From IMG/VR virus record IMGVR_UViG_3300032770_000012, positions 37,194 to 101,193 of that record: a stretch of DNA of 64,000 nucleotides, one strand, 5' to 3'. This DNA is from a virus. How positions within the stretch are numbered: the first letter of the stretch is position 1; every line of letters begins with the position of its first letter. Under the pieces are notes generated by a model, which saw nothing but the letters and a program-made list of their open reading frames with translations, made no database searches and was not told the origin of the DNA. Position numbers and translations under genes: made by a program. Positions 1,073 to 64,000 of this stretch are shown piece by piece.

Positions 1073-1302
1073 TGGGTTTTGTCCAGATCTGGACGTAATT
1101 CACAGGCGATTTCCTCGCGCTTTTCTATGGACCGGATAGCGCGCTGCACGGCGTTCAGGAATTCGTCGTAGGGGGCGTAGTATCTTGGCCGTTCAGACTC
1201 TTCGCGCCGGAGGATCTCGCGCCACTGCGCGATGGTGAACTCGGCAGTAACCTTCAGCCGGATGTCGTCGGGATTGGAGCAGGCCACGGTGACGTTAATC
1301 AT
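1069..1302 (-). CDS. Hypothetical phage protein
   Basis: 77 aa; translationally coupled chain of minus-strand genes. Confidence 0.65.
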   Translation of the reverse strand: MINVTVACSNPDDIRLKVTAEFTIAQWREILRREESERPRYYAPYDEFLNAVQRAIRSIEKREEIACELRPDLDKTQ

Positions 1303-1359
1303 GGTGAGTAGCCTTGGATTCGGGCGCGTCCCAGGCGAGTTTCAGAGCGGCGGGGTCGG

Positions 1360-1515
1360 TCATAAATGCTTTCCCCAGATCATCCAGCCGATCTCAATTC
1401 CGACGACGATCCAAGCCAATGACGCGAACCACCAACTGCTAAGGATGCGCTTCCAGGGGATTCTATGCCGTTGCTTAGACCAGCCTTCAATGTAATCTGG
1501 ATCGTCGCTTTTCAC
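1360..1515 (-). CDS. Small membrane protein
   Basis: Manual translation from GTG 1515: ...ILSSWWFASLAWIVVGIEIGWMIWGKHL, one TM segment; overlaps the upstream stop. Confidence 0.5.
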   Translation of the reverse strand: MKSDDPDYIEGWSKQRHRIPWKRILSSWWFASLAWIVVGIEIGWMIWGKHL

Positions 1516-8498: not shown

Positions 8499-9122
8499 AT
8501 GAAAGTCGCCATATATGCCCGCGTGTCCAGGGACGATAAGGACAAGGACGGGAAACAAGTACAACATCTTGAGAATCAATTACTTGCACTGAGGGAGTTC
8601 TGTCTAATGCGGGATTGGACCATCGTACACGAGTACACTGATATGGTCTCCGGAAAGTCCGGCGAGCGAGAGCAGCTAAAGGCAATGCTTACAGCGGCAT
8701 CGCGGCATAGGTTCAATGCTCTGCTGGTCTGGTCTCTTGATCGCCTGACACGCGAGGGAATTGGTCCAACGTTCGATTACATCAGGCGATTACAGGACTA
8801 CGGTGTAGACTTTATCTCATACAAAGAAGAGCACTTCCGTACTACTGGCGCAACCGGAAAGCTAATGCTAGCCATCGCTGCGTGGATTGCAGAGCAGGAG
8901 CGTCAGCGTCTTTCCGAGCGTACTAAGGCGGGTCTTGAAAGGGTCCGGCGGGCAGGTACAGTCCTAGGTCGTCCGCGATCCGTGGATATCGTCAAGGATG
9001 GAGCGTTGATACGTTCTCGCCGGGCGGGTGGTGATAGTATCTCATCTATTGCCAATGAATTAGGGGTATCTGGAATGACTATCAGGCGATACTTGGGGGG
9101 TTCCAGGTCGGTCTCAGACTAG
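8499..9122 (+). CDS. Small serine recombinase (resolvase/invertase) with C-terminal HTH
   Basis: AIYARVS catalytic Ser, SLDRLTR, ERTKAGLER...LGRP, C-terminal HTH. Confidence 0.95.
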   Translation: MKVAIYARVSRDDKDKDGKQVQHLENQLLALREFCLMRDWTIVHEYTDMVSGKSGEREQLKAMLTAASRHRFNALLVWSLDRLTREGIGPTFDYIRRLQDYGVDFISYKEEHFRTTGATGKLMLAIAAWIAEQERQRLSERTKAGLERVRRAGTVLGRPRSVDIVKDGALIRSRRAGGDSISSIANELGVSGMTIRRYLGGSRSVSD

Positions 9123-12098: not shown

Positions 12099-12418
12099 GT
12101 TCGGGCACCTCCGACATGGCGCGCTCCTCTCCGCGCGTTCCTGGCCAGCGCCAGCGCGCGCAGTGAGCCTTTTAATCGCTGCGCGCGCCCGAGGTTCCAC
12201 GTGACACCTTGGCCGGTTTGTCCAGACTGGACGATTTTTTTTGCGCTCGCTCGGCGAGCTTGCCCAATTATCCGAAATCCCATGATGGTTCAAAAAAAAT
12301 CAACGGACTACGGAAGTTTAGAGCACTCCACCGCGCGGGGATTGCTTTCCAGAAAAATTGCCGCGACTAAGGTTTAGACTTCATACCGTTGAAAACATTA
12401 GATCCCAATGATTAGAGC

Positions 12419-14949: not shown

Positions 14950-15203
14950 ACGAGGCTTTCACGCACGCTCGTAAGGGCGACAAATTCTTTAAGTTCGTCT
15001 GGCTTTCGAATCTTGGCACGGAATATTCCAGCGGTCGCGACGTGGCTGAGGCCTTCGGAAGCGCCGGTTACAGTGCTGGAGCGCTAGCGGCTTTGGATTA
15101 TCACGCCGAAGTTTTCCCCTGTAAAGACTGCGATTTTATTGGGGATTCCAAGGCCGATCTGACAAAGCACAAGCGCTCTTGTGGAAAGAAGGTATCAGCA
15201 TGA
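14946..15203 (+). CDS. Small protein with C-terminal C2H-type Zn finger
   Basis: FPCKDCDFIGDSKADLTKHKRSC; ATGA overlaps at both ends. Confidence 0.65.
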   Translation: MNEAFTHARKGDKFFKFVWLSNLGTEYSSGRDVAEAFGSAGYSAGALAALDYHAEVFPCKDCDFIGDSKADLTKHKRSCGKKVSA

Positions 15204-17179
15204 CCAAATCACTCCCGATGGATGCTGCCAAGCTGATGAGCCGGGCGCGCACTAAGCTGATGCTCAACCATCCGTGGTTCGGTTCGCTCGCCATGCGCCT
15301 GAGAATGCAGGAGCGCTCCGACATCCCCACTATGGCGACCGACGGAACGTATCTGTTTTATAATCCTACGTTTACGGCGTCATTGAGTGAAGCGGAGCGC
15401 TTAGGCGTGGTTGCACATGAGGTAATGCACGCCTGTTTGGGTCATGTATTTCGTCGCCAAAACCGTGACCCGTATAGGTTTAACGTTTCCTGCGATCTGG
15501 CGATTAACCCGATACTGATCGAGGCGGGCCTGACTTTGCCCAAGGGCGTGCTGATAGACGACAAGTTTAAAGGCATGTCTGCTGAGGCGATATACGCCCG
15601 CCTTCCTATCAACCAGCAGGGGGGCGCTGGTAAGGGATCACCGCAATCCGGGGGCGCTCCTAGCGCCCCTAATGGCCGAAGATCGATGGGGAATTGTCCG
15701 ACTGGCGAGTTTTGGGACTCACCTTCTATCGGATCTTGTCCAGATCCGGACGCCATGACGGAGCAAGACTGGCGCATTGCGGCTGAGCAGGCTTGCCAGA
15801 TAGCCCGTAAAGCCGGTAAACTGCCAGCGAGTCTTGACAGGGCGGTCGAGCAGGGCCGAAAGAGTCGCACGGACTGGCGGGCGCTCTTGCGTGAGTTCAT
15901 ACAATCCACCACGCCGAGCGATTATTGCGTCGGGCCGGAAACGATGGTCCTACGAGCAGATCTCACATGGGCACGCGCTGACGAGATCAAGATCGGCGAT
16001 GAACTAATCGGGGTCGATGAACACCCCGCTCGCTCCGTTGACACCAATGTGTATGGGCGGAGACGCGTCCGCGTTTCAGTGGTTGAGTCCGCCCATACCT
16101 TCAATTCCACTAGACTCGCGGTGACTACGGATCGGGGGACAACGATTGTCACCCCCGACCATCGCTTTCTCTGTTTCAAGTCTGGCGGCAAACTCCATTG
16201 GAAGTACGCAAAGAATCTCCGCCAAAATGATCAAATCAAAATGCTTCTACAACCATGGACCGAGGATTTATCTGACTCATGGCTAGCCGGGATGCTTGAT
16301 GGTGAAGGAACATTGACAGCCAATCCGGCGACATCGCCCCGTTCCGGCCTGAACCTCCGCATTAGCCAAGCAGAAGGCCCCGTGCTTGACCGCGCTGTCT
16401 CTGAGTTTGCTAACTTTTCATCAGTTGCGAAACGGATAAAGATATGCAAACCGCCTAGACATCTCGGCTCTCAAGTGATCGGAGAAGTGATAGTCTGTCG
16501 TGTGGCAGATGTTCTCCGTATTATCGGCCAGCACCGACCGACTCGATTGCTGCCAAAAATGCTCGATATGATACGGCGTGGTTATTTTTCTCTGCCTCGC
16601 TTGGACAGGGCCACTGTGCGTAGTGTCACTCTTTGTAAACCTGGATCAGTTGTTGCCATTCAGACCACTACACGCACGCTCATAACTGACGGCCTAATCA
16701 GCCACAACTGTTGGTGCGCCCCCAGCAGGCGCTACATTTCGCAGGGTTTGTACCTTCCGGGGATCGTTAAGGAAGGCATGGGGCCTATTGTGGTGGCGAT
16801 CGATACCAGCGGGTCAATCACGCGCCGGATGCTCAACGTGTTCGCCGCCGAGCTATCGGAGATCCTGACAGAGTGCCGCCCGGAATCGGTGGAGGTCATC
16901 TATTGCGATGCGGCGGTCCAATCCACGGAGACATTCACGCCCGATGATGGCTTGGTAGAACTCAAGGCCAAGGGCGGCGGCGGCACGGCATTCCGGCCCG
17001 TTTTTGAATGGGTTGCGGACCATAACTTAGAGCCCGTCGCGATGGTGTATGCTACGGACCTGGAGAGCTTTGACGCGCCCGACGATCCGGGAAGTTATCC
17101 GGTTCTGTGGCTGACGCCGGAGGACGTATCGCGGGGCGTCCCATTTGGCCGTCATGTGCCGGTGGACGTGGAGGATTGA
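15200..17179 (+). CDS. DUF2201-type HEXXH metallopeptidase-VWA protein containing an intein
   Basis: TMATDG, AHEVMH, MIDAS IDTSGS, GGGGTAF, ATD. Confidence 0.92.
   Translation: MTKSLPMDAAKLMSRARTKLMLNHPWFGSLAMRLRMQERSDIPTMATDGTYLFYNPTFTASLSEAERLGVVAHEVMHACLGHVFRRQNRDPYRFNVSCDLAINPILIEAGLTLPKGVLIDDKFKGMSAEAIYARLPINQQGGAGKGSPQSGGAPSAPNGRRSMGNCPTGEFWDSPSIGSCPDPDAMTEQDWRIAAEQACQIARKAGKLPASLDRAVEQGRKSRTDWRALLREFIQSTTPSDYCVGPETMVLRADLTWARADEIKIGDELIGVDEHPARSVDTNVYGRRRVRVSVVESAHTFNSTRLAVTTDRGTTIVTPDHRFLCFKSGGKLHWKYAKNLRQNDQIKMLLQPWTEDLSDSWLAGMLDGEGTLTANPATSPRSGLNLRISQAEGPVLDRAVSEFANFSSVAKRIKICKPPRHLGSQVIGEVIVCRVADVLRIIGQHRPTRLLPKMLDMIRRGYFSLPRLDRATVRSVTLCKPGSVVAIQTTTRTLITDGLISHNCWCAPSRRYISQGLYLPGIVKEGMGPIVVAIDTSGSITRRMLNVFAAELSEILTECRPESVEVIYCDAAVQSTETFTPDDGLVELKAKGGGGTAFRPVFEWVADHNLEPVAMVYATDLESFDAPDDPGSYPVLWLTPEDVSRGVPFGRHVPVDVED
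15926..16708 (+). mobile_element. Intein (261 aa) with LAGLIDADG endonuclease motif
   Basis: Cys1 CVGPETMV, block B TPDHRF, WLAGMLDGEG, terminal His-Asn followed by Cys+1. Confidence 0.92.
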
Positions 17180-45450: not shown

Positions 45451-45813
45451 ATGGCGATGACCCTTCGTTCGGTCGAGAAGATTACCGGACTGGAAGTCAG
45501 GCGGCTTCCCGGCGCAGGAATGCCACTGTTCGGAGCGTACAACTCAGAAGGGTCTGCCGTTACGGTTCGATCTGGGAGAACCGAGAAAGAGGCCCTGCGG
45601 GAACTGGTCAGCGCCGTGTACAAGATCAACCGCGAAGAGGCCATGATTCGCGCAAAATTTAAATGCGAGAACTGTGGATCGCGCAAAGACCTGGAAGCGC
45701 ATCACAAGAAGTTCCGTTCGCACGGCAGGAACGACCGCGTAGAAAATCTTGAGGTGGTATGTCGTCTATGCCATGAGATTAAGCACGGTGTGGGGGGTTC
45801 GAGCCTTGGGTAA
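45451..45813 (+). CDS. HNH endonuclease
   Basis: CENCG...LEAHHKKFRSHG...VENLEVVCRLCH. Confidence 0.85.
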   Translation: MAMTLRSVEKITGLEVRRLPGAGMPLFGAYNSEGSAVTVRSGRTEKEALRELVSAVYKINREEAMIRAKFKCENCGSRKDLEAHHKKFRSHGRNDRVENLEVVCRLCHEIKHGVGGSSLG

Positions 45814-46537
45814 GCCATGGACGCAAGACGAGATCGATATCCTCAGAAGATACTTAGAGGAGACTCCTTCTCGGCAAAGAGACCCTCGCGTCATCGCGGA
45901 GAAGCTTGGAAGGACGTATGTCTCCGTTACCTTAAAGGCTAATCGGCATTTAGGACTCCGGTTCTCTCAGTTCTCGCCTGAAGAATTAGAACAGATCAGA
46001 TCTTATTACCAAACAACTCCGGTCAGGCAGTTCAATCTATCCGAGATAGCCTCGCGTATCGGCAGGCCTCGAACTAGTGTGTCGGTTATCGCCCATAAAT
46101 TAGGCCTGTCGGATCTAAAGAGACCCAAAAGAATCGTGAGACATGGAGAGCAGCATCCTGGGTGGAAGGGGGACTCTGCTACTTGTCCGGCAGCGGGGCA
46201 TAGGCGCGCTCGGGTGTTGTATCCAGATTTGGGACCTTGTGAACGCTGCAAATTGAAGCCAGCCGTCGAGCGCCATCACGTTGACGGAAATACCCTAAAC
46301 AACGCCCCGAACAACATTCAAAAACTATGTCGCCGATGCCACATGATCGTTGACGGGAGGCTGGTTAAGTTTTCCTGTCGTGAAGATGCATTAGCGTCCA
46401 GAATTTCATGGCAAACTGTCAGGGATATACGGGCTTCTATGTTGCCTCGGAGCCAATTGGCGAAGAATCACGGGGTATCTAAAACCACAATTTCTCGCAT
46501 CAAAAATAACGAGATATGGAAGGAAGCTCCCGTCTGA
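45806..46537 (+). CDS. HNH endonuclease with Myb-like and HTH domains
   Basis: WTQDEIDIL repeats; CERC...HHVDGNTLNNAPNNIQKLCRRCH; C-terminal HTH. Confidence 0.85.
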   Translation: MGKPWTQDEIDILRRYLEETPSRQRDPRVIAEKLGRTYVSVTLKANRHLGLRFSQFSPEELEQIRSYYQTTPVRQFNLSEIASRIGRPRTSVSVIAHKLGLSDLKRPKRIVRHGEQHPGWKGDSATCPAAGHRRARVLYPDLGPCERCKLKPAVERHHVDGNTLNNAPNNIQKLCRRCHMIVDGRLVKFSCREDALASRISWQTVRDIRASMLPRSQLAKNHGVSKTTISRIKNNEIWKEAPV

Positions 46538-46559
46538 TTTATCCAGACTGGACAAACCA

Positions 46560-47042
46560 ATGCCGCATCGCGTGATACCGATTGACAAATACGTTCCAGG
46601 GGATGGCGCTGTAGGGGCCGTGCATCCTCCAGGAAAGCTCTTTACGGGCAGCTTCTTTGGCCGCCATGCCTGGTCAAACAGCCACATTGTGCTGACAGGA
46701 CCAAAGCCGCTCGACCTTGAGGCCGAACCGATCCTGCCGGAAAAGTGGCTGCACGCTCTCTCGCTAGCGACGGTTGGAGACAACCCGAAAGAACAGGCGA
46801 CCCCGATCTGTGTTCACAACGCCTACGTATGGTTCGCCGAGGGATGCGTCATTGCGGTGGCCTACTACGATGCCGCCGTGACGCGCTGGCCGAACTGCAC
46901 ATTCCACTGGGACGGAAAGACCGCTGGAGTCTGGATTAGGCATCAGGGCCAACCGGCAGGCATCATCATGAGGATCAGGATTAAGGACGACGATTGGCCG
47001 GGTTGCGTTAAGGCGCTGCTACCGGCAAAGGGGCCCGCATGA
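46560..47042 (+). CDS. Hypothetical protein
   Basis: 160 aa in the plus-strand operon. Confidence 0.65.
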   Translation: MPHRVIPIDKYVPGDGAVGAVHPPGKLFTGSFFGRHAWSNSHIVLTGPKPLDLEAEPILPEKWLHALSLATVGDNPKEQATPICVHNAYVWFAEGCVIAVAYYDAAVTRWPNCTFHWDGKTAGVWIRHQGQPAGIIMRIRIKDDDWPGCVKALLPAKGPA

Positions 47043-49610: not shown

Positions 49611-51883
49611 TACTGTTTCTTTAGCACTCCAAGCGGATCGTTTGTGTCGCCAGCGCCTGCCCCCCTGACGGCCTTGCCGATCGGGGATTCCTGCATTTCC
49701 TGAATGATCCCTTTAATGGAGTCCTTGAAGCCCTGTTGTTCCAGCTTCGCTTCGACGGCGATCTGATCCACCATGGCCTTGACATCGCTCATCTTGGCTT
49801 CGCTGTTCATGAGCCGATCCACGTCCTGCTGGACGGTGACCGGCAGCATGGCTCTCGACAGACCGCCACCCGCCGTGACGGTGCTGTATTGACGACGCAG
49901 GGCGTTCCAGGCAAGCCAGTATTTGCGCAAATTCGGGTCCCCAATGGTCTGGGCCGTAAGTTCTCGGAATGGCCGGTTCAGCAGTTGCATACCGGTATCG
50001 CTGATCTTGGCTCCGGTGTCGATAACCTGCTCGCCATCGAGCGTGATGATCTTGTTCAGCCGGTCGGTCGCTACATACCGCTCCATGGTGTCGGCGATGC
50101 CCTTCGCCATGCCCTTGTTGGTAATCAACGCTCCTTGCAAGCTGATCGGGTCCAGGCCGGTCAATTCGGCCAGTTTCTTCAGTCCGATCTGGACACCGGC
50201 CTGAGCCGCCTTGCCGCTTTGCGGGATAGTTCCCGATAGAGCCGAAAGTGCCTGATTGATATTGGCGGCATCCATGCTACTGATCGGCGGTTTGGGGCTC
50301 CCCGGAGGGCGCTTCTCCGGCTTCTCCTCGCCCCTGACGGAGGGAGCCTGCGGCTTTCCTCCGCCCGCTTCCGTTCCGATTCCTGGGATATTCAGGCCCG
50401 GCCCGATTCCGATCCGACCTCCAGATAGCGCCTCATCAAGTAACGCTTGTTGCTGGATGCGCCCAAGATGAATGTTTTCCCGTTCCGTGACGGCTTGACC
50501 GGCTAGTTCACGCGCCTCAAGGTCGGTTTTACCCATCTTCTTGAAAGCATAGTAGTAAGCCTGCACCATGCCGTATAGGCGCTGTTGCGTCGGGGTTGCA
50601 ACTCCTTTGGTCCCGTCTGGCATCAAATTGCCGCTGATGTCGGTGTAGCCTTTCTCTCCAGGACTCACATAAGCCTGTTCGGGCTCCTCGGCTCCGGGGC
50701 GTTGGACCCAGACCAGTTTCTTACCGGCTAACGATTGAGCCTCGGTGACTTCTCCGGAAACCCGCTGCTTGGTCTGTGGATTCCAGTATCCATCGGCCTT
50801 GCCAGCGCCGGTAATCAGAATCAGATCCGGAGCGGGTTTGCCATCAACGAGCGGCTTCTTAACCAGCACGCCCTTTGCCCCGCTTTGCGGCAATCCGATA
50901 TAGCGCTGTGCCGTGTCGTACAGCGCCGCTTCATTAGGCTGTCCAGATCCGGACGTGGCCTCTGGACGCACGGCGGGCGGCAATTGGGGTTCTCGGACCG
51001 GTGGAGGCGCGGCGGCAGCGCCAGCGGTCTGCGGTGCCTCGCCGCGTACCTGCGGTACACCGGTCTGCGCTTGCTCTGGAGGGCGAACGGCTGGTGGAGC
51101 GCCAAGTCCAAGTTCTCCGCCTAGTCGCATTCGTTCGGATTCGGAGCTTCCGGCTGCTGGGCGCACATCGAACGGTCCGAGCACGCCCTGAATGGCCGTT
51201 TGATAGCCCTTGGGATCGTATTGCTGAAGGATCTTTTCGGCCTGCTGGAATTTCGGGTTGGCCGCGATCTCTTGCTGGAAGGGTTGCCGTCCAGTCTGTT
51301 TGGTTGTTTCCTGGACCGCCTCCTGCATTAGTTGGTTTGCCCGGTTGGTCCAATTGGACTTCTGAGCCTCCGGGGCCTTACCGGCCTTCTCGCCGGTCGT
51401 CATCAGGTCGATCAGAGTGTCCTTACTGATCGCCTCACCCTTCAGTGGTCCGCCGATCATTCCCTCAAGGATCTGACTGAAGGCATGGCCTACCGGGTTG
51501 GACTGCTGGCCCTTCTTGCCCTTGCCGCCACCATCCTGAAGGTTCTCAAGGACCGATCCGGCAGCGATCTTGGCGAACTTGTTTGTGATGTCCGACTTGA
51601 ACTCGTCAGTCTTGGTGGGATCTTTAACTTGGGCGTCAACCCACTGCGCAACCCGAGATAGCGTGGAGACCTTCTCGGCCTCGCGCCGCTGGTAAGCCGC
51701 CAGCCTGCCCTGTTGGAGTCCAGAGAGGAACTTAGCGGCCAGTCCGCTAATGATTCCTAGCCTGCGCTCGTATCCGGTGAAGCCTTGATTTTGCGCCTGT
51801 TGTGCCGATTGGCTGACTTGCGGCGTAATGGCTGGAGTGAACGGCCCTTCGGTCGGAGCAAACGGATTGGGTTGAGAGGCCAC
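49610..51883 (-). CDS. Putative DNA ejection (internal virion) protein
   Basis: 757 aa, A/Q/G-rich and helical; podovirus gp20/gp16-like position. Confidence 0.6.
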   Translation of the reverse strand: MASQPNPFAPTEGPFTPAITPQVSQSAQQAQNQGFTGYERRLGIISGLAAKFLSGLQQGRLAAYQRREAEKVSTLSRVAQWVDAQVKDPTKTDEFKSDITNKFAKIAAGSVLENLQDGGGKGKKGQQSNPVGHAFSQILEGMIGGPLKGEAISKDTLIDLMTTGEKAGKAPEAQKSNWTNRANQLMQEAVQETTKQTGRQPFQQEIAANPKFQQAEKILQQYDPKGYQTAIQGVLGPFDVRPAAGSSESERMRLGGELGLGAPPAVRPPEQAQTGVPQVRGEAPQTAGAAAAPPPVREPQLPPAVRPEATSGSGQPNEAALYDTAQRYIGLPQSGAKGVLVKKPLVDGKPAPDLILITGAGKADGYWNPQTKQRVSGEVTEAQSLAGKKLVWVQRPGAEEPEQAYVSPGEKGYTDISGNLMPDGTKGVATPTQQRLYGMVQAYYYAFKKMGKTDLEARELAGQAVTERENIHLGRIQQQALLDEALSGGRIGIGPGLNIPGIGTEAGGGKPQAPSVRGEEKPEKRPPGSPKPPISSMDAANINQALSALSGTIPQSGKAAQAGVQIGLKKLAELTGLDPISLQGALITNKGMAKGIADTMERYVATDRLNKIITLDGEQVIDTGAKISDTGMQLLNRPFRELTAQTIGDPNLRKYWLAWNALRRQYSTVTAGGGLSRAMLPVTVQQDVDRLMNSEAKMSDVKAMVDQIAVEAKLEQQGFKDSIKGIIQEMQESPIGKAVRGAGAGDTNDPLGVLKKQ

Positions 51884-54491: not shown

Positions 54492-57400
54492 TCAGGAAAT
54501 TCCAACCACGCAACCGCCCGCGATTTCGATGTTGTGATAGGTGACGGCTCCTATGGTGAACCCCGTGGCCCAATTCAGCATGTAAGGCCCTAAGGCCCCG
54601 GTATATTGAATGCCCCCAACGAACGGATTGAAGTCAGCCGCTGTGACTCCGTAACTCGGACAGTAGACGCCTTCTCCGACAAACCTGTGGTTATTGTCTA
54701 TCACGACCGTGCCGTTCGAAGTGAGATCGTTCACGTTCGCTCCCGATCCACCGGAACCCGCAGAATTTTCCCTGACCGCCAACCCGCCCGCCGTCGAGAT
54801 GGCGTTGAAGGCGGTGGAGAAGCAGTAGATGGCTCCGCTCGAACCAGATCCCAGTACCACGTTGGTCGGTAGCGAAATAGTGACGCCTCCGGTCGCGGCT
54901 GAAACGGTGACCTGATTGGTCGTTCCCGCAAGTGAAGTGACTCCGGCATTCGTCACCGTCACGCTCGCCCCACCGGCTGCTACCGTGATGCCGGTTCCGG
55001 CTGCAATACTGACCGCACCGGTCAGGCCATTGAGCGAAGTAACCCCGCCGCTTAAAGCGGCAAGATTCACGGTAGACCACGCGCTCGTACTCGGATTGTA
55101 GTACCACCACGTAGAGCCGCTGTTGTGCGCAAAGGCCGCATAACCGGCTCCTGGAGGATTGGGTGAACTGGAGAGAGTTTTCGAATACAACGCTTGATCG
55201 ACGGTTACCCCAAGCCCCAAATGCGCTCCTCCTGCCAGGGCCTTGAAGGTATCAAAGGCGCTACCGGCAGAATAATAGCCGACTGTCGCGCTGACAAACC
55301 CGGTCATTTGTAGAACCGCGCCCGATGAATCGTCCACCGTTGCGTTTATTAGTACATGCCCTAGTCCGGTAATTCGAACATGCTCCAGAACGCTCGTGCT
55401 CCCAGCGGCAGTTGTGTAGAACGATAGGTAAGTCTCAGCGCTTATGGATGTCCAGTTTGATCCCGCTATCAAAGCGAATTGACCGCCGAATGCCTTGGCG
55501 GACCCGGCCCATCCGAAACCGCGAAAAGACATTAGGCTGTCTCCGGCGACTGTCGATGAGGGGCTTATAGCGCTGCCGCGATAGGAGTAGCCATCGAGCA
55601 GTGTCCCAATATTAAAGCCGCTTCCGGAGTACGAGAATCCCCTAAAATTGGCGTAGGTGTTGGCAACTCCAGCATTGCTGACTACGTCCAGCACCGCCAC
55701 GGCGCTGCTTTCTATCACCGCCGCCGATGCAGACGCCCCTTTTACGTGAAAGGTTTTATTGGTGTAATCCCAATAAAAATTCGCATCTGCCCCGAATGCG
55801 CCCGCATGATTGTATTGAATCTGTTGATCGGAACCGGCGACGGCTACCGATCCCAGGAGGTCCACGTAGGCCGCGCCGTTCTGAGAAATTCTGACCTTAT
55901 GGCTGGTCGAGTCCATATAGAGGCGGGTTTGTCCGGACGCAGACAATGCCGGGGCCGCTTCCTGCACCAAGAACCACGAATCGGTCGCTATCAGTAGCGC
56001 CGCCGTGACGCCTCCGGAAGGGGCCTGGATCGCATTCTGATTCGTGTTGTTGGTTAGGAACCCGCCATCGGACTGAATATAGGCGGTGTGCGGGGAGTTG
56101 GAATCCGTCACGAGCAGCGCCGCGTAAGCAGCCACTCCGGTCTTGCCCTTAACCGTGAGAGCTTGGCCGGTGTAATCCCAGGTCAGGTTGCCATCGGCCC
56201 CGAAAGATGACGATGAATTGTACTGCAACATTGTGTCGGAACCGGCGACGCTGCTTGCGCCGAAGAGATCCCGATAGGCCGCGCCGTCCATCGACACCTT
56301 GACAGAGTGGCTGGTCGAATCCATATAGAAGCGGCTCTGCCCGGAAGCGGACAGCGCCGGGGCGCTTTCGGCCACCAGGAATAATGAGTCGCTAGCGATC
56401 AGCCATCGCGCCGTGACCCCTCCGGCCTTGGCCTGGATGACATCCGTATTGTTGTATGGGGCGCTGGCTGTATTGGGCACAGCGAAGCCGCCAGCCGCCA
56501 TGATGAAGGCATTGGTTTGGAGCCCGTATGTGCTGTTGGGCGTTACGGTGGAATTCGTGGCCGAAGCCCACAACAAAACATCGTTAGCCCCGAACGATCC
56601 GAGTCCATTCAGCGGTGCGGGGAAATTAGCGTATCCCAAAACCTCAAAGTCGATGTACCCGCCAGTGCTGCTATACGGCACGATGGCATGACCGGCCAAA
56701 TACGCACCCGCTCCCTGCGCGCCGCCGTTGATGGACTGCCAGGAATTGAAGTTGGAGAGAAGCCCGCCGTCGAATCGCGCGTAGGCCGTGTGCGGAGTAT
56801 TTAGATCGGTGACCACAAAGGCGGCGTAACTCGAAGCGCCGGTCTTGCCTCGAATGCTCATGACCTGATTGGTATAGTCCCAGAGCAGGTTGCCGTCTCC
56901 GCCAAATGCCGAAGAATTGTTGTACTGGATGCTCTCGTCGCCTCCCCCCGGACTTCCGCCGCCTCCGGCCCCGATTGTGTTCCAGACTCGAAGTCCGCCT
57001 GATGTGGAGTAGGAAATCTCAAACACCCCGCCACTCCCGACACCGCCCGTCCTGCGGTACCGGATCAGGCCGTAACTGTCATTGAGACTGTTCGCCTCGG
57101 TGTCGTAAAAAGACGTGCTGGCGTTGTACATCCCGTAGACCGAGTAGCCGTCCACAATGGTCTTGCCGACATAGAGATAGTCCACCAACGAACCGAAGGT
57201 GCTGCGGCTGGCCGTTACCAACGCCCCGGTGTTGGCTGCGCCGTTCTGCGATACATTCAGAATGCCGGTGTCCCCCAGTTGCATGAGCAGGGTAGCTACG
57301 TTGGTAGCGAGATTCTGGCTATAAACCTTCCATGCTCCTTGCGTGCTGACGCCTTCGCGCTGAACGATATTACGGGCCAAGTTCGCCTGCGGCGTGCTGG

Positions 57401-59195
57401 ATAGGCCGCTATTGGTGTGGAACAGGTAGGAACTGTTTGACCCACCGGCCAATCCCCCGGAACTCGGCAGAAATTCTCCCAGGTTTGAGCCAAGGATTCG
57501 ATTATTGTAAACGTAGTTCGGACCGTCCACCGTGCCGTAGGTATCCACTTCGGCCACGCAGTACTGGACCCCGGCGCAATCGTAATTGATGGTGTTGCCG
57601 GTGATGACGTTCAGCTTGTTGTGCCGTGGTGGGCTCACGTAGGGCGACCCGGTACTGGCCGAGGTCCCTAGCAAAACCGGAACCCCGATCGCCGTTGCCC
57701 CCAGACTCGAATTGCCGGGATGCCAGATGCTGTTTCCGGTGACCAAATCGTTCTGCGCGTTGAACAGGTTCACCGCCATGTTACCCATGTTCTGTACGGT
57801 GTTTCCGATAATAGTTACACGCTGCCCGCCTCGCGGATCGTAGGTCGCGTTAGTCTGAATCCCGGTGGTGATATTTTGGGCCGCGCCGGGCGAGTATCCG
57901 TAATTGGCGATTTGGTCGGTCACATACAGTGGGTCGGTGTTCCAGGAGATCATCATGCTGTTATTGCTGACTTCTCCGCTTGTGAAGCCGTCTAGATCGA
58001 TACACTCGCCATTGACGTTCAACATGGCGTTGCCGGAATATTTCCCGTTCTGGCAATATCCCGAGGTATCGATCGCCACCGCGTTCTGTCCTGGATAATA
58101 GGCCGGGGAGCCCGCAACGTACCCGATCCGATAGTAGTAGTTGTTGTTGACGGTGAAGTTTTGCACATCACCCATCTCGGTTCCGTCGCGCCCGACATCG
58201 GAGAACAGGCTACCGAACACCGAGAAATTCTGGTGCAGGTTGGCAGTCGTGTACGTGTAACTCCAGACACAATTCCCGGTGATGTTCTTGAAGGTGCAGT
58301 TGCTGACGACCAACCCCTGTACTTGCGTTGCGGCGTAGACCTGAGAGTTATAGCCGTAGGGATTTGTTCCGTCTCCTCCGCCCGCCGCAAAGATTCCTCC
58401 GACCCAGGAACCAACGCCGTGATAAGTGTGCCCCCCGGTGGTGCCGCCATAGACCAGCGCGATATTGTTCTGGAATATGCAGGACAGCACGTTCATCCCG
58501 ACCAAATTCTGCATTCTGGAATCGAGCAGAAGCGCGTAGCCGCCACAATCCTGCACGATCACGTTATACAGGTAGAATGTTGACGCTCCGTTCGACACCC
58601 AAATCATCGAGTTATTCGTTAGAGTCGGGTGCATCGGATCGCCCGCCATGGTGCCGAATAAAACAGAGAAGTCGAGTTCGGTCGATGACGTGATGCTGCC
58701 TTCCAGCAATAGGGACTGGATTGAGTTATTGTTGGCCGTGACCTGAACCACCCCGCTGGCAAATGTGCTTGCGGCGTTTACCTGAAAGATTGTTCCCGGA
58801 CCGTCTCCGAATAGCAGAATATTCGGTTTGTTCATCAGGATCGCGCCGTTGATCTGCCACGCCCCAGCCTTGCAGTGAATGGCCGCTCCTGCTGTGGGGG
58901 CGGACTGGATGGCGGCATTGATACAAACGTCGCTCAGTCCTCCGCCGCCGCAAAACTGGCTGGCCTCGATGATTGTGCTGAAATTGCTGGGACTCGGCGG
59001 GGTCGGCGTCGGTCCTGCGCCACTGCTGACCGATGGGGTCGTTACGGCAGTCATCGCCGCCGTGGTGGTCTTCAGCCCTTTTTGTGCCGCAAGAATCTGC
59101 GCGGCCAACATGCCAAAGTTCTTATTTAGCCGCGTCAGCTTAGGATCGGAGAGATCTGCGGGGCTGATGTCCAGAATTTGAGCTTGCGTGCCCAT
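54492..59195 (-). CDS. Tail fibre/tailspike with pectate-lyase-like parallel beta-helix
   Basis: INAAIQSA...GAWQIN...LFGDGPGT then PbH1-type Asn ladders; three QYNxxxxFGxDxNxxWDYT repeats; GVTSLNGLTGAV repeats. Confidence 0.85.
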   Translation of the reverse strand: MGTQAQILDISPADLSDPKLTRLNKNFGMLAAQILAAQKGLKTTTAAMTAVTTPSVSSGAGPTPTPPSPSNFSTIIEASQFCGGGGLSDVCINAAIQSAPTAGAAIHCKAGAWQINGAILMNKPNILLFGDGPGTIFQVNAASTFASGVVQVTANNNSIQSLLLEGSITSSTELDFSVLFGTMAGDPMHPTLTNNSMIWVSNGASTFYLYNVIVQDCGGYALLLDSRMQNLVGMNVLSCIFQNNIALVYGGTTGGHTYHGVGSWVGGIFAAGGGDGTNPYGYNSQVYAATQVQGLVVSNCTFKNITGNCVWSYTYTTANLHQNFSVFGSLFSDVGRDGTEMGDVQNFTVNNNYYYRIGYVAGSPAYYPGQNAVAIDTSGYCQNGKYSGNAMLNVNGECIDLDGFTSGEVSNNSMMISWNTDPLYVTDQIANYGYSPGAAQNITTGIQTNATYDPRGGQRVTIIGNTVQNMGNMAVNLFNAQNDLVTGNSIWHPGNSSLGATAIGVPVLLGTSASTGSPYVSPPRHNKLNVITGNTINYDCAGVQYCVAEVDTYGTVDGPNYVYNNRILGSNLGEFLPSSGGLAGGSNSSYLFHTNSGLSSTPQANLARNIVQREGVSTQGAWKVYSQNLATNVATLLMQLGDTGILNVSQNGAANTGALVTASRSTFGSLVDYLYVGKTIVDGYSVYGMYNASTSFYDTEANSLNDSYGLIRYRRTGGVGSGGVFEISYSTSGGLRVWNTIGAGGGGSPGGGDESIQYNNSSAFGGDGNLLWDYTNQVMSIRGKTGASSYAAFVVTDLNTPHTAYARFDGGLLSNFNSWQSINGGAQGAGAYLAGHAIVPYSSTGGYIDFEVLGYANFPAPLNGLGSFGANDVLLWASATNSTVTPNSTYGLQTNAFIMAAGGFAVPNTASAPYNNTDVIQAKAGGVTARWLIASDSLFLVAESAPALSASGQSRFYMDSTSHSVKVSMDGAAYRDLFGASSVAGSDTMLQYNSSSSFGADGNLTWDYTGQALTVKGKTGVAAYAALLVTDSNSPHTAYIQSDGGFLTNNTNQNAIQAPSGGVTAALLIATDSWFLVQEAAPALSASGQTRLYMDSTSHKVRISQNGAAYVDLLGSVAVAGSDQQIQYNHAGAFGADANFYWDYTNKTFHVKGASASAAVIESSAVAVLDVVSNAGVANTYANFRGFSYSGSGFNIGTLLDGYSYRGSAISPSSTVAGDSLMSFRGFGWAGSAKAFGGQFALIAGSNWTSISAETYLSFYTTAAGSTSVLEHVRITGLGHVLINATVDDSSGAVLQMTGFVSATVGYYSAGSAFDTFKALAGGAHLGLGVTVDQALYSKTLSSSPNPPGAGYAAFAHNSGSTWWYYNPSTSAWSTVNLAALSGGVTSLNGLTGAVSIAAGTGITVAAGGASVTVTNAGVTSLAGTTNQVTVSAATGGVTISLPTNVVLGSGSSGAIYCFSTAFNAISTAGGLAVRENSAGSGGSGANVNDLTSNGTVVIDNNHRFVGEGVYCPSYGVTAADFNPFVGGIQYTGALGPYMLNWATGFTIGAVTYHNIEIAGGCVVGIS

Positions 59196-59203
59196 GTCTG
59201 AGG

Positions 59204-62200
59204 CTAGGCTACACCTTTGGGAGAAAGTGCTTCCCAGATCATATGCTGGTCGTAGTCTCCCCGCTGGTTCCCGCTCATCAGTAGCGATTCAATGCGCGAT
59301 CCGTCTCCGTAGATCTTGAACGGGGCGCTTGAATTAACAGCCGCGATGGTGAACCGGAAGCGCTTGGACTTATTGAGCACGGAGCCCACTGCCTTAGGCA
59401 GAAAGAACCGTTCCGTGTCTCGATAGCTATGGGCGGCGAGCGTTGTCTGGTAGAACTGCGTGTTGCCGGATACGTAAATGGTGAGAGTGATTCCGCCAGT
59501 GCATAGGTATTCCACCCAGATTTGCTTGATGAATCTGAAGCCCACCGATCCCAGGACCAACTCGGAGGAATCCCACCAGGTTAGATACTCCGGCTCTCTC
59601 CAAGCGTCCCACTTTACGTCGAAGACCTGGGCCTTGCCGCCAGTTCCGGGAGTGTAAACCAGATTGAACATCTTGCCAAGCTGGTTGGGGTTTACAGTGA
59701 GGATTCGGACTCGGTCCGTGCTGGTCGTATTCACTGTGAAGTTCTGAACTGTGGTGCCGTCCACTCCGAGCGCCACGTTGCAATTTACGCCCCCGGTATC
59801 AATCGTGAGCGTGATTGCCCGCAATACCTTTTCGGCGCTCCATCCCAGATTGCTCCAGTCCGTGAACAGGCTGATGTCTGGTGGATACTTGATGAAATCA
59901 AAGTGGTACTTCCAACTCTTGAGCGTTCCTGGGTTCGTCCCTCTCGCCTGGACCCGGACCATCTTAACTACCTGCCCATCCGCGATAGCGAACGGCTGCT
60001 TGGATCTTCCGGTTCCCGTCAAGGTGACAGTGAATGCCGGGGTCGTAACGGAAGTCCCGTTGAAGCCGCTGATTGTGTCCACATCGACCACCAACGCGCC
60101 GCCAGCATGGTCGTACTCCATGGATAGTTCGGTCAACTTCTTGTCGTAAGGGTAGCCCAGATCGTCCCAGTCGCTCGTATGACTGACAGCGCCTTTGTCG
60201 GCTGGCTGCACGACATAATTCAGCGACCATAGCTGGAACATCGCCCCGCTCGTAAGCGGGGTTGTCAGTAAGATCCTGAATTTCTTTCCAACGATCGGAG
60301 AGTTGAGCGTGTAGGTGAATTTCCTCGTGCTCAACGTGGTATTGACCGTGATGGTTTCCTGGGTGGTCCCATCGGCTTGGATCTGGACCGATACGTTGAA
60401 CCCGTTCGTGTTCACGTCGAATACGATCTGCTGGAGATACTTGTCATAGGCGTAATCGACATCGGTGTATTCGGTGAAGTACACCACGTCCGGGGGATAC
60501 TTTTCGAATGGCTCGAAAACCGGCGATCCAAAGATCTCAAAGTCCGCGCTTGCAACGTTAGGTCTGAGGCGGACTGCCTTTACGACTAGGCCGTCGATTA
60601 GCGGATAGACCTGCTTGCTTCGTCCAGATCCGGACAGACTAAAGGTTTGGACGCCAAACGTGGCGTTCGCTCCTCCAACGCCGTACAGAATATCGAGCGA
60701 GAGCGTGATGGTTTGACCCTTTGCATCGTACTCCAGCGTCATCGTGAACAGGTGCTTGTCGTAGGGATGCCCGAGGAACATCCAGTCGGTTATCTGGCCG
60801 CGCTGAATATCCGCGAGTGGATTGTATCGAAATTCGACACCATGCAGGATCAACGCGGCGGTTGCCGATCCGGTAAAACGCAGGGCTATAGCCTTAGCTT
60901 CTTTGCCCCAACTCTGAGACAACGTTTGTTGCAACGGAAGCGGGACCCATCTCCGGCCTGCCGCTGGAGCGATGGTGAACGTATCGGTCGAATCTCCCGT
61001 ACTCGAATAGTCGTAGTAAAGCTGAACTGTGATATTGTCACTCGGGTTCTCTACTTCGAGGGCAATGTCAGTAAACTCCTTGATTGTCGTTCTGGATTCA
61101 GGCGCATAAAAGCCGGTGAAGGCCGCGAAGCTGATGGCCGTCCCGCTTGTCGGGGTAGACACCCAGGATTCGGTCGTACCTTGTTCGAACTGCTCCAGAT
61201 ACGCCGAGCCTGGGCCGTTGTCGAACACCGCTCCTATCAATCTCCCGGTGTCTTTCTCGCTCAAAAATGAAAGCATTACGCTACCGAACTGCACCGCGCA
61301 TGGCTCCCAACGCTTGTAGACCAAGTGGTAACGCAGTATGTGATTTCCGGCGCTGGTGTCGCTGTAGATGAAATAGACGTAGGAATCATGGCTGACCAGT
61401 TTGGCTGGAGCCTGACCTGGCACGCCTTCCAGAGTCGCGTAATTCAGCGGAGCCAAACTCCCAACCTGCTGGCCGTTGAATACCCAATCGATGGCCTCGG
61501 TCATTTTGATGCTCTCGCCGCCCGACCACGCATAAATTCCGTCGTAGGACAGGTACCAGATCGAGTCGCCAACCCGCGTCCATAGGTGCTTAGCCACCAT
61601 GCCGCGATTTACAGGAGCTTCTTGTATGTTCCAGATCGCTCCGTTCCACAGTTGGAACGTATAAATCTTATAGAGGCACAGGACGACTATTTCCCCGCGA
61701 TGCTCCACCAATCCGGTGATCGGATTGTCCGGGGTTGTGATGTTCACGATATGAGCGTTGCCGTCTTCTAGATCGACTGGCGGATAGGCGTTGACCTGAG
61801 CACTCTTGCTCTGGTAGATTTTGTGCGGGTTATTAGGGTCCCCGGCCAGAATCAGCGTGTCGCCAGCCTTGCACAGAATGTCGCAGGTGGCGTACATGTA
61901 GTCGGAGTTCAGGTTCTCTCCCGGAGAGTGAATCCTTTGCAGATAGATCGTAATTTGTGTTGCGGTCACCGACAAAATGATGCAATCTTCGTCGTTAACA
62001 CCGTTCCCGATATGAATATTCCCGCCTGGGCTCAACGCCGTTCTCAAATCGCTTATTCCGGAACTGGCTGGCGCGAACGTTGTCAATCCGGTCTGCGCTG
62101 GCATACCGCTTGGAGTGAGCGCGGCGAATACGATGTCGGATGGGACGGGCGCAAAATTGTCTAATACCAACTGATCGTTCCCTGCTATCGCATCGTCTGG

Positions 62201-63850
62201 TTGATTATCCACGAAGTCCACCGGCAAAGGAGTGCCGCTCGAAACCCCTGGATTGCTTGTATACCCGACGAAGCGGTATAGCGCGTCCGCAAATGTTCCG
62301 CCCGCCCGATAAATGGCAATTGAGCCGAACCCCTGCAAGTCTGGGTTTCCGGTAATCCCGGCATAATCGGTGCCCCAACAGCGAACGTTGATGGCCTGCA
62401 CCTGAACGTCTATCCAGTTCTCCGGGACCAGCGATGTGGAAGGATTACCGATCTCTCCAGTTACCGGATTCCTGTAAACGTACCGGTACCTGTAAGGCGC
62501 GGCGGTTGGCTGAGTGATCGAATCCGGTCCCTGACCGCCCCTCGCATAGATCGCTCCGACTTCTACCTGATATGTTGGCCCTCCGGCTACTTGGTTGGTG
62601 ATGACGTAGATCTCAACCATGCTGACGTTCTTCCAGGAGAACGCCCCTTGCCCGGCCTGCCCTACAGCAAGAAACGTGTTCTTTGGGATGTCGTACTCAT
62701 ACCAGGTCGGGGTTTCGGTCACAGGCGGAACTTCGATTGGCTGCACCTCGATATAGGTCTGGTCTCCTTTGGCTGCAAAATCCTGAGCGCTTTGGGCTGC
62801 GATCGCCGCTGCCGCCGCATTTGCCGCCTGCTCGGCTGCGATGTAGCTCGCGCTAACCGGCATGGCGATGGCCTTCTCGTAATAGTCGGAACCAGATCCA
62901 TTCACATAGACCCTAACGCGGATCTCGGAGGTATAGGCGATGCTTCCGATCCACAGGCCAACGTGAACAATGTCGGCGCTGCTATAGCCAGTCGCCGGAG
63001 TCCCGCTAAAAGACCAATCGAGCGAAGCGCTGTAGTCCGCTTTGTAAGCGTTCCCGTCCGCTGTAATCTGAGTGACCGGAGAACCCCCGGCGTCTTCGTT
63101 GACAAGCGTATAGAACGAATCGATAGCCCCGGAGGGAGTGCTGGCGCAGATGGCGAAGAACGTTGTGCTGGTAACGGACTGGACCAGAACAAAGGTCGGA
63201 CTCCCGCCAATGGTCATCCGAACATACATCCCGGCTAGGATGTTCGACATGTCGGACGGCGTGATCTGGTAGTAGTTGCCGGATACGAGCGTGGCCGATG
63301 TAACCGTAACGCCGGTCAAACGATTGGTCCCGCCCGATTGATCCGCCATTACGCTAAGGCTTGGAGAGCCGAATCCCAGGACAGCGGGGAGCGCGGGAGG
63401 ATAGATGCCCCACGGATGCGCAATCGAAGACGCCCCGTCGTCCTTCAGCATGATGTCGGGTGTGGCGAAGTAGAAGTAGGGTTTGCCGGAACTCGTTGCC
63501 GAATATGCCTGGCCTTCCCATCGCTTGCCCGATATTGGGTAACCAGTGGTGATGTCGGTGTAGCTGGAGTATGGCCCTGTGACCCGCGTAATCGAAGCTC
63601 CCTGCCCGATGTACCTCAGGTCCGCCGAATCCGCCCCGCCGAGGGCCATTTTGTACATCGTGTGCAGACCGGCATCGAGGTTTCCGCTGGCTGTATCCAG
63701 CCGCTTAGAGCCAAAGCGGACTTGAATATTGCCCTGCTGGATGCTGGTGACATTCAAGGCTTCTTGAAGTTGTCCGGGCTGAAGACTGCCTGGATCAATT
63801 TTTGTAAAAACGCCCTGAAAATCGAAGGGGAAGGCAAGGCGCTTCGGCAT
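59204..63850 (-). CDS. Large tail hub/tube-like structural protein (P22 gp10/T7 gp12-like) with expanded C-terminal repeats
   Basis: LQEALNV...IQVRFG N-terminus, beta-propeller-like centre (IWYLSYDGIYAWSG), repeated TDW..LGY.YDK.L domains. Confidence 0.7.
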   Translation of the reverse strand: MPKRLAFPFDFQGVFTKIDPGSLQPGQLQEALNVTSIQQGNIQVRFGSKRLDTASGNLDAGLHTMYKMALGGADSADLRYIGQGASITRVTGPYSSYTDITTGYPISGKRWEGQAYSATSSGKPYFYFATPDIMLKDDGASSIAHPWGIYPPALPAVLGFGSPSLSVMADQSGGTNRLTGVTVTSATLVSGNYYQITPSDMSNILAGMYVRMTIGGSPTFVLVQSVTSTTFFAICASTPSGAIDSFYTLVNEDAGGSPVTQITADGNAYKADYSASLDWSFSGTPATGYSSADIVHVGLWIGSIAYTSEIRVRVYVNGSGSDYYEKAIAMPVSASYIAAEQAANAAAAAIAAQSAQDFAAKGDQTYIEVQPIEVPPVTETPTWYEYDIPKNTFLAVGQAGQGAFSWKNVSMVEIYVITNQVAGGPTYQVEVGAIYARGGQGPDSITQPTAAPYRYRYVYRNPVTGEIGNPSTSLVPENWIDVQVQAINVRCWGTDYAGITGNPDLQGFGSIAIYRAGGTFADALYRFVGYTSNPGVSSGTPLPVDFVDNQPDDAIAGNDQLVLDNFAPVPSDIVFAALTPSGMPAQTGLTTFAPASSGISDLRTALSPGGNIHIGNGVNDEDCIILSVTATQITIYLQRIHSPGENLNSDYMYATCDILCKAGDTLILAGDPNNPHKIYQSKSAQVNAYPPVDLEDGNAHIVNITTPDNPITGLVEHRGEIVVLCLYKIYTFQLWNGAIWNIQEAPVNRGMVAKHLWTRVGDSIWYLSYDGIYAWSGGESIKMTEAIDWVFNGQQVGSLAPLNYATLEGVPGQAPAKLVSHDSYVYFIYSDTSAGNHILRYHLVYKRWEPCAVQFGSVMLSFLSEKDTGRLIGAVFDNGPGSAYLEQFEQGTTESWVSTPTSGTAISFAAFTGFYAPESRTTIKEFTDIALEVENPSDNITVQLYYDYSSTGDSTDTFTIAPAAGRRWVPLPLQQTLSQSWGKEAKAIALRFTGSATAALILHGVEFRYNPLADIQRGQITDWMFLGHPYDKHLFTMTLEYDAKGQTITLSLDILYGVGGANATFGVQTFSLSGSGRSKQVYPLIDGLVVKAVRLRPNVASADFEIFGSPVFEPFEKYPPDVVYFTEYTDVDYAYDKYLQQIVFDVNTNGFNVSVQIQADGTTQETITVNTTLSTRKFTYTLNSPIVGKKFRILLTTPLTSGAMFQLWSLNYVVQPADKGAVSHTSDWDDLGYPYDKKLTELSMEYDHAGGALVVDVDTISGFNGTSVTTPAFTVTLTGTGRSKQPFAIADGQVVKMVRVQARGTNPGTLKSWKYHFDFIKYPPDISLFTDWSNLGWSAEKVLRAITLTIDTGGVNCNVALGVDGTTVQNFTVNTTSTDRVRILTVNPNQLGKMFNLVYTPGTGGKAQVFDVKWDAWREPEYLTWWDSSELVLGSVGFRFIKQIWVEYLCTGGITLTIYVSGNTQFYQTTLAAHSYRDTERFFLPKAVGSVLNKSKRFRFTIAAVNSSAPFKIYGDGSRIESLLMSGNQRGDYDQHMIWEALSPKGVA

Positions 63851-64000
63851 GCCTTCTAGTAAACGACAGGTTCTAGCGTTTGTCCAGACTGGACTGGAGT
63901 GTTATGACTTAGCGTAGTTAGGAAAGAGTCCCCGCATCGCAACACCAGCTTCTCTACGATACATAAAACCAATTACATCACGCTTCTGTTCGAAGGTGAA

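Follow-up and report, generated by a model that had tools for sequence, protein, structure and literature searches.

A dispersed palindrome in an uncultured phage and its lineage-specific counterparts: putative sites of a phage-encoded dimeric DNA-binding protein

The closest described case of the element treated here is the dyad repeat of the Cluster O mycobacteriophages, a 17-bp sequence of the form TGTTCGG-NNN-CCGAACA (PMC4351075, PMC6439249). Its 34 copies, whose arms are invariant and whose centre varies and has no orientation, occupy intergenic, 5'-proximal and intragenic positions of phages that are not temperate, and the repeat is predicted to bind a dimer, neither a binder nor a function being named in the 2015 paper (PMC4351075). 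Here we analyse a palindrome, GTCCAG-A(T)-CTGGAC, which is dispersed through a 64,000-nucleotide stretch of viral DNA (positions 37,194 to 101,193 of IMG/VR record IMGVR_UViG_3300032770_000012; hereafter the window) from a phage designated G0, and which is of the same unexplained kind. As in Cluster O (more than 30 copies there, about 20-30 here), the copies are spread through a genome of 70-100 kb that does not look temperate, their arms are invariant and their centre varies without orientation to transcription, many of them lie between open reading frames (ORFs) or near 5' ends while the rest are intragenic, no association with promoters is seen, and the predicted dimer site begins with TGT and ends with ACA. 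Unlike in Cluster O, to which the present phages have no sequence relationship and from which their host phylum differs, the half-site is here split into many alleles across a family, one of them common to an unrelated phage, and a candidate for the binder is proposed. We lean, if only slightly, towards the view that the copies are duplex sites for a phage-encoded, dimeric, sequence-specific DNA-binding protein, the most likely binder being the product of the gene at 44742-45446 and the most likely role being control of transcription.

The stoperators of Cluster A mycobacteriophages are asymmetric sites, oriented with transcription and bound by the monomeric immunity repressor of temperate phages (PMC9283540, PMC6550527). 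The sites of G0 resemble them in being 13-14 bp long, in numbering in the dozens, in being concentrated in short intergenic gaps and in varying in sequence with lineage, but they are perfect palindromes with unbiased variants in a phage in which no integrase could be found. The preliminary description of this DNA had listed a stoperator-like roadblock among its readings; the likeness to stoperators gives way before the symmetry of the sites and the missing integrase, and the roadblock itself survives as one form of the transcriptional role considered below. On plasmid RK2, KorB acts at 12 OB operators; its N-terminal domain is a CTPase, its partners are IncC (a ParA) and KorA, and its structures have the PDB identifiers 1r71 and 8qa8. 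KorB with its dispersed operators is the closest mechanistic model for the candidate protein: in both cases a 13-bp palindrome is dispersed over the replicon, the binder is (here by prediction) a dimer with a ParB-type helix-turn-helix, and the central domain of the candidate can be aligned to the DNA-binding domain of KorB (Z 5.6 and 5.2), whereas the candidate has no CTPase domain and G0 encodes no ParA. Tens of palindromes of 12-14 bp, which single out a replicon or part of it for a dimeric binder, are also seen in the cellular systems Noc/NBS, SlmA/SBS and MatP/matS, which are linked to cell division or to the Ter macrodomain. Unlike in these, no membrane-binding or CTPase part is seen in the candidate of G0, and we know of no phage for which a link to cell division or to the Ter macrodomain has been described.

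Copies, placement and absence from the likely host

In the window, whose coordinates are used throughout unless marked as genome positions, the 14-mer GTCCAGATCTGGAC is present in four perfect copies (1081, 23211, 33348 and 43346) and in six copies with one mismatch (15738, 26253, 34170, 40636, 50941 and 60622), a total of ten against 0.02 expected that was reached by none of 100 dinucleotide shuffles. The 13-mer GTCCAGACTGGAC adds three perfect copies (12220, 20289 and 63882) and one with a single mismatch (46541) against 0.15 expected. All 14 copies enumerated in the preliminary description hold the sequence that it gave for them, and a weak additional copy with one arm mismatch and a TG centre, GTCCAGTGCTGGAA (24019-24032), was absent from its list. 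The window is the final 64 kb of a virus record of 101,193 bp; the two ends of this record have 127 identical bases in common, it is a circular assembly or carries direct terminal repeats, and because of the terminal overlap the copy at 63882 is the same as that at genome position 9. Over the whole genome the perfect copies are five 14-mers with AT and one with AA in the centre plus four unique 13-mers; copies with one mismatch number about twelve. The ten perfect dyads compare with a mean of 2.1 and a maximum of 5 under a first-order Markov model. About 21 palindromic sites are dispersed round the 101-kb circle. Nearly all of their mismatches are transitions, in positions 1/14 and 5/10. As a working consensus we use RTCCRG-A(T)-CYGGAY, frequently with a flanking T and A; the flank sequence common to the copies is only 1-3 bp, and target duplications are absent. 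A literature search for the motif returned cloning primers only.

The likely host was approached through an IS1595-family transposase (DDE_Tnp_IS1595 plus zinc ribbon) encoded at 1990-2967, which provides a host clue for an otherwise unplaceable phage, as it is closest to copies from Bryobacterales. Its identity is 86% to a Bryobacterales genome, 79% to one of Bryobacteraceae and 78% to one of Solibacteraceae, and nearly all of its 80 best matches are from Acidobacteriota; the likely host therefore belongs to Bryobacterales (Acidobacteriota), as judged from this insertion sequence (IS) only. In five genomes of this group, GTCCAG-N1-2-CTGGAC is found 0-3 times per 5-9 Mb and never with an A or AT centre. 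None of 201 genomes sampled from the likely host class exceeds three matches, and together they are at about the level of a reversed-pattern control. The perfect 14-mer is present in four copies in roughly 1 Gb of these 201 genomes, about as many as chance would give. Two of the 201 (G082 and G113, with one and two matches) are unpublished, and the conclusion is independent of both. A host-wide repeat of the HIP1 kind can accordingly be set aside, with 0-3 matches per 2-9-Mb genome in the five and the 201 genomes, close to the control level: the preliminary description had asked whether the motif is equally frequent across the host chromosome, and in the host as assigned from the IS it is not. 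The statement that no copy lies in the IS also stands, the nearest copies to the transposase gene being those at 1081 and 12220.

Across seven family genomes about two thirds of the sites are intragenic, in both orientations. By our own rough gene calls, about half of the copies in the window are either in short gaps between genes or no more than about 35 nt away from a start codon, and the earlier statement that the copies are mostly inside genes is only partly correct. Sites that are not fully within a gene number 47 of 131 in the seven genomes where 18 would be expected (P = 2e-10). Copies of this kind typically separate co-directional genes, with a stop codon a few bases before them and the next ATG 2-36 nt after them. 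Among the perfect 14-mers, that at 1081-1094 is situated where two small minus-strand ORFs meet, and precedes by 8 nt an ATG that overlaps, as ATGA, with the stop upstream of it; that at 23211-23224 is 57 nt away from the 3' end of a small ORF on the plus strand; that at 33348-33361 is located, on the minus strand, 33 nt before an ATG with a strong Shine-Dalgarno sequence; and that at 43346-43359 occupies a gene junction downstream of dnaB, in the first codons after an ATG with a good Shine-Dalgarno sequence. The perfect 13-mers are intergenic (12220-12232, the sole copy followed by a T-run), within the minus-strand ORF 20196-20720, which has a weak HTH_23 match (20289-20301), and 32 nt upstream of the ATG of a gene for a 1548-aa protein (63882-63894), and the one-mismatch 13-mer ATCCAGACTGGAC (46541-46553) fits between ORFs 45749-46537 and 46560-47042, 3 nt after the stop of the former and 6 nt ahead of the ATG of the latter. 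One-mismatch 14-mers are found within the genes for a DUF2201 metallopeptidase (GTCCAGATCCGGAC, 15738-15751) and a SNF2/ResIII helicase (GTCCAGATCTGGAT, 26253-26266), within the minus-strand ORF 33939-34925 (GTCCGGATCTGGAC, 34170-34183), 8 nt past the stop of ORF 40238-40627 and over codons 2-6 of ORF 40631-40954 (40636-40649), and within two minus-strand genes whose products have 757 aa (50941-50954) and 1548 aa (60622-60635).

Eight of the ten intragenic 14-mers of G0 are read in the frame that gives Ser-Arg-Ser-Gly (SRSG), nine of the ten intragenic copies of the related genome G261 are read in another frame, and the motif of every lineage favours particular frames. Such a preference is the expected outcome of selection for a DNA word under the constraint of the encoded protein. 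The view that the element acts at the DNA level, and that coding constraint does not explain it, is therefore retained from the preliminary description, and its picture of copies read indifferently in several frames is amended, as frame use is uneven. The spacing of the sites is more even than random in the related genome G258 (P = 0.001), with P = 0.06-0.09 in G0, G2, G259 and G262 (0.06 in G0). The sites do not appear to be -35 elements of sigma-70 promoters because -10 hexamers show no excess at the right spacing: sigma-70-type -10 elements at a spacing compatible with a -35 element accompany 1.4% of the sites against a background of 2.3%.

Lineage-specific dyads in related phages

No nucleotide relatives could be identified when 24 kb of the window were compared by megablast with phage and plasmid collections, and tblastn matched neither the major capsid protein nor the candidate binder to any of 50,697 phage records of GenBank, so that an isolated relative is absent from the GenBank phages searched. 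When IMG/VR was scanned for the perfect 14-mer, many records were returned, and each of the 50 that were checked in full has a single copy; these single-copy records are chance background. Two records are enriched, viz., G1 (95 kb), with five perfect AT-centre copies and five near copies, and G2 (74 kb), with three perfect copies and variants with an AA/TT centre. G1 is a distant relative of G0, with 24-31 genes in common at 25-60% amino-acid identity. G2 is unrelated and has with G0 only a remote terminase match plus weak similarity in the replication module. In G1 (L119-L123) we also note two frequent 10-mers, GAGCGAGCCA (61 times) and GAATGTTTCA (39 times), which are unrelated to the palindrome and probably stem from one or more tandem arrays.

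The portal protein of G0 has about 95 relatives at 36-49% identity, many of them on contigs of 95-106 kb, and 80 portal loci were taken from IMG/VR for a comparison of the family; locus searches with a single terminase, a two-sequence capsid alignment or a two-sequence alignment of the candidate binder returned nothing or only G1. Members of the family each have 8-30 copies of a dyad of their own, with the general form GTC(C/T)NN-N1-4-NN(G/A)GAC. The half-site and centre GTCCAG-AT is found in G0, G1, L222/L223, L230 and L242, GTCCAA-YR in G258 (25 perfect copies in 94.6 kb), GTCTTG-NN in G259 (14 perfect copies), GTCCGC-CCG/CGG in G260 (eight perfect copies), GTCCCA-CG in G261, RTCCGA-NN in G262 and CGTCT-N6-AGACG in G269 (11 perfect copies in 80 kb). 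Further variants in the family are GTCCGA-NNN, GTCTGA-GG, GTCTAG-CC, GTCTGG-NN and GTCCAA-CATG, and one clade carries CACTCCTATATAGGAGTG instead. The motif type switches between close relatives on the portal tree, in which GTCCAG appears in at least four separate places.

Some of the sites are more durable in position than in sequence. Many lineages have a copy, in a sequence specific to the lineage, 4-36 nt before the portal start codon; G0, G262, G258 and G261 have one just past the g10 structural module, and G0 and G261 have another that follows the portal gene. The motif of G0 is one allele of a family-wide system in which positions persist and the sequence follows the lineage. Conservation in related phages, for which the preliminary description had proposed a check at synonymous sites, is observed at the level of the motif in G1 and in the dyads of the family.

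Three side observations concern individual clades. The centre dinucleotide of the G258 sites (L302-L306) is CG in eight copies, TG in ten and CA in seven, and is never TA, which is the pattern that deamination of a methylated central CpG would give. The repeat of one clade, CCA-CTCCTATATAGGAG-TG (L217:8485, 15418 and 20489; L218:589), is located 3-13 nt before start codons, and CTCCTATATAGGAG includes a Shine-Dalgarno sequence plus its complement. G264 (L335-L340) represents a subclade of lower GC content (49%), in which k-mer and dyad scans revealed no dyad of the GTC type (about 1.4 expected) and no other repeated dyad.

Nature of the sites, rival readings and the candidate binder

The form of the copies speaks more for a duplex site recognised by a dimer than for a stem in RNA, because the tolerated variants are symmetric, the mismatches are never compensated, the predicted hairpins are weak, the dyad centre varies freely within one genome and non-complementary positions are kept. 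The core hairpins are predicted at -4 to -5 kcal/mol, and at 0 for the asymmetric forms of G268. Three lineages keep non-complementary half-site positions in several copies: RTSCAA-CG-TTGSAY in L296 (genome G268) is one such form, and TCTTG-AT-CCAGA and GTCTGT-AT-CCAGAC are further ones. A hairpin in RNA or single-stranded DNA, whether as a terminator, an inter-cistron processing or stabilising signal, a translational operator at the Shine-Dalgarno position or an N4-type hairpin promoter, would account for the many copies that follow closely on a stop codon and have the next ATG 2-13 nt further on, with no intervening Shine-Dalgarno sequence, for arms that co-vary across the family around a loop-like centre of 1-4 nt, for the tolerance of both 13-mers and 14-mers in G0, for the Shine-Dalgarno sequence and complement in the relative's repeat CTCCTATATAGGAG, and for the T-run after the copy at 12220. 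We nevertheless regard it as unlikely, since the stems are weak and their mismatches uncompensated, the variants do not prefer either strand with respect to transcription, about two thirds of the copies are intragenic in both orientations, and a purely structural role would not need an identical sequence in all copies of a genome. Neither an intrinsic terminator nor an RNA stem-loop element fits the weakness of the hairpins, the uncompensated mismatches, the non-complementary positions conserved in some lineages and the restriction of the T-run to the one copy.

Alternatively, the site could be that of a factor of the host (for instance a regulator, nucleoid protein or defence component), and the phages would have gathered or mimicked it. 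Such an origin is suggested by G2, which has three perfect copies and variants of the motif despite having only distant terminase and weak replication-module similarity to G0, and by the 50 other viral records with exactly one 14-mer each, but it appears improbable, as perfect copies in the genomes of the likely host class are at about chance level and as the half-sites of close relatives differ, which no single factor can explain unless hosts differ by lineage. Still less do we expect the palindromes to be a by-product of copying or of biased repair, be it a selfish mini-element or a methylation-linked drive of the sort that has reportedly been proposed for HIP1. G0 does encode DNA methyltransferases and several HNH endonucleases, the inner 6-8 bp of the sites are like the type II recognition sequences AGATCT, AACGTT and CACGTG, the G258 centres resemble the outcome of CpG deamination, and the copies are identical within each genome; a by-product would, however, sit poorly with shared flanks of only 1-3 bp and no target duplications, with positions that are kept across lineages while the sequence changes, with spacing more even than random, and with a recently acquired IS region in which no copy is present. 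The least credible of the readings, in our estimate a very remote one, is that of centromere or clamp-loading sites for a ParABS-like partition system of a plasmid-prophage, the parS-like loading site of the preliminary description. It draws on a palindrome of 14-16 bp with TGT...ACA flanks, on the resemblance of the candidate binder to ParB DNA-binding domains (Z 7.0, 6.2 and 5.6, below the level of trust) and on a separate gene with a weak ParB_N-like domain (genome 35037-35711). Searches for ParA-type ATPases (PF13614, PF01656) gave no match in G0, G1 or G2, with controls matched in 14 of 14 genomes, the PF00589 integrase was not found in these three genomes and no other lysogeny genes were seen in them, the candidate binder has no CTPase domain, the ParB_N-like gene adjoins a methyltransferase and is present in three of the six family genomes compared, and the sites are spread over the whole genome and not clustered. 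Since neither ParA nor an integrase could be found, parS-type partition and immunity silencing are both unsupported, and a temperate immunity system was rejected on the same ground, the only recombinase of G0 being a small serine recombinase.

If the sites are duplex targets of a phage-encoded dimer, the gene at 44742-45446 (plus strand, 234 aa) is the best candidate that could be found for the binder. It is a core gene of the family, with homologues in five of six related genomes by BLAST and in all of seven further genomes that are at least 78% complete, and its own protein family comprises about 505 clusters at 50% identity. Pfam returned nothing for the protein or for six of its relatives and no consistent match in 128 family representatives, the N-terminal CTPase domain of ParB (PF02195) was not found in the candidate, the relatives or the representatives, and profile searches against PDB sequences gave nothing significant. 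The structure was modelled from a 128-row alignment with a predicted local distance difference test score (pLDDT) of 93.8. For its central domain (residues 61-173), the best structural matches are DNA-binding domains of the ParB family, led by ParB-parS (PDB identifier 6s6h_B) with a Z score of 7.0 and a root-mean-square deviation of 3.6 over 95 aligned residues and followed by Spo0J (PDB identifier 1vz0, Z 6.2), KorB (Z 5.6 and 5.2), VirB, P1 ParB and SopB. The Noc DNA-binding domain is among the weak matches, and residues 178-233 resemble ribbon-helix-helix domains (Z 4-5.6). We treat the ParB/KorB-like helix-turn-helix fold only as a weak lead, because the Z scores are below the level of trust, the Foldseek E-values are not significant and its main support is the recurrence of a single family in the list of matches. 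The protein is predicted to pair as a symmetric homodimer; the prediction scores 0.76, where the best control scores 0.00, with a contact agreement of at least 86% and a pLDDT of 77, and in calibration the mark is reached by 20 of 30 solved homodimers and by one of 23 monomers.

Sequence comparison of the candidate with its homologues partly follows the motif. G0 and G1, which have the same motif, are identical over a stretch (LSRSNLYE) in the putative recognition helix, for which residues 101-110 are taken, the Asn of this stretch is present in only nine of the 128 family representatives, and the two proteins are 42% identical as against 32% for G0 and G262, a genome that is closer to G0 in several other genes yet has a different motif. 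A profile of the candidate also retrieves a protein of G2 (hidden Markov model E = 3e-5; hhalign 93.8%, over the helix-turn-helix region only); among the families tested, the other matches between profiles and G2 are the large terminase and, weakly, DnaB and the replication initiator. The G2 protein is encoded at 58558-59280 of that genome, and the homologue in G258 at 40457-41188. The proposal of this gene by the preliminary description is thus borne out in that it is a core gene with a predicted homodimer, less so in the resemblance to ParB and KorB, which is weak. Its second candidate, 20196-20687 (ORF 20196-20720), is not upheld, with only a weak HTH_23 match and a homologue in none of the seven related genomes compared. 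The ParB_N-like gene mentioned above was likewise rejected, given its presence in only three of six family genomes and its position beside a methyltransferase; its match to PF02195 is below threshold (14.9 bits, genome 35442-35681) and has no counterpart in G1 or G2.

We propose that a phage-encoded dimer would bind duplex sites of the form RTCCRG, a centre of 1-2 bp, and CYGGAY, and that this dimer may be the 44742-45446 product, a putative symmetric homodimer with a ParB/KorB-like helix-turn-helix and no CTPase domain; that this particular protein binds the sites we hold to be somewhat less likely than not. Together with roughly 20 evenly spread sites, it would form a genome-wide system and a trait of a family of uncultured phages of about 100 kb, in which each lineage has a half-site of its own and the positions of the sites would persist as their sequence follows the lineage. 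The enrichment of sites in gaps past stop codons and the lack of overlap with sigma-70 promoters make control of transcription along operons, by roadblock or insulation, or by timing, the most likely job, although for this role taken by itself our expectation is lower again, nearer to one in three than to even. Genome organisation or self-marking would be the alternative role. A bolder form of the proposal, which we consider doubtful, is that a new family of ParB/KorB-type homodimers devoid of the CTPase domain and 10-30 evenly spaced, lineage-specific dyads make up a genome-wide addressing system, in which protein and sites have co-diversified in the manner of an immunity specificity, one specificity having been adopted by an unrelated phage. 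Such a system would act on the whole chromosome, insulating or silencing transcription or marking the phage's own DNA, and would characterize a large family of uncultured soil and peat phages of about 100 kb, with about 500 protein clusters at 50% identity for which no Pfam family exists.

Several observations weigh against the proposal of a dimer and its duplex sites. The 13-bp and 14-bp forms coexist in G0, and a rigid dimer is not expected to tolerate a shift of one base pair between half-sites; the range of the centre across the family is likewise a point in favour of a hairpin. The Z scores of the fold matches are below what is advised for trust (less than 8, in helical proteins), and the Foldseek E-values are above 0.1. 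The homologue in G2 has a different recognition helix (SRSWAYE) despite the same motif and aligns over the helix-turn-helix only, and as the candidate gene lies in the replication module, this homology may merely reflect a distantly related module. The G264 subclade has a homologue of the candidate yet no detectable dyad, the large intragenic share is a poor fit to a pure operator role, and our own gene calls are rough, which is a weak point for the placement figures. The family offers dozens of natural variants of site specificity, sites that are conserved in position and one concrete candidate with a confident model and a predicted dimer. Should the pairing of protein and sites be true, the phages would harbour a new CTPase-less branch of ParB/KorB-like binders that acts genome-wide, and also a ready-made set of orthogonal DNA-binding specificities. 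The analysis further places a family of uncultured phages of about 100 kb with the Acidobacteriota.

Other genes of the window and the genome

G0 is a tailed phage with genes for a major head protein, portal, large terminase and HNH endonucleases, and it also encodes a RecT-like protein, a replication initiator, DnaB and a SNF2-type helicase. The serine recombinase (Resolvase domain, E = 9e-36) is encoded at 8499-9122 (genome 45698-46153), and an 11-kb stretch that includes it and the IS has a low coding score and zero copies of the palindrome; this stretch may be a recently acquired island. A sulfation cluster at 31433-36985 has genes for an APS kinase, a fusion of glycosyltransferase and sulfotransferase, and FkbM-like methyltransferases, and two of its genes have homologues in G262 at 57-67% identity.

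Two adjoining giant genes at 54492-63850 encode proteins of 1567 and 1548 aa, the latter kept across the family at 31-44% identity. Neither has a match in Pfam or PHROG, and on this ground the idea of a virion RNA polymerase was set aside. The DUF2201 metallopeptidase/VWA gene (15179-17179) carries, at about residues 253-511, an insert that weakly matches intein splicing domains. An intein common to different host genes, those of DUF2201 and terminase, is suggested, because this insert resembles, at 30% identity, the insert (L217:1125-1934) that opens the large terminase ORF of a related phage (L217:801-3842).

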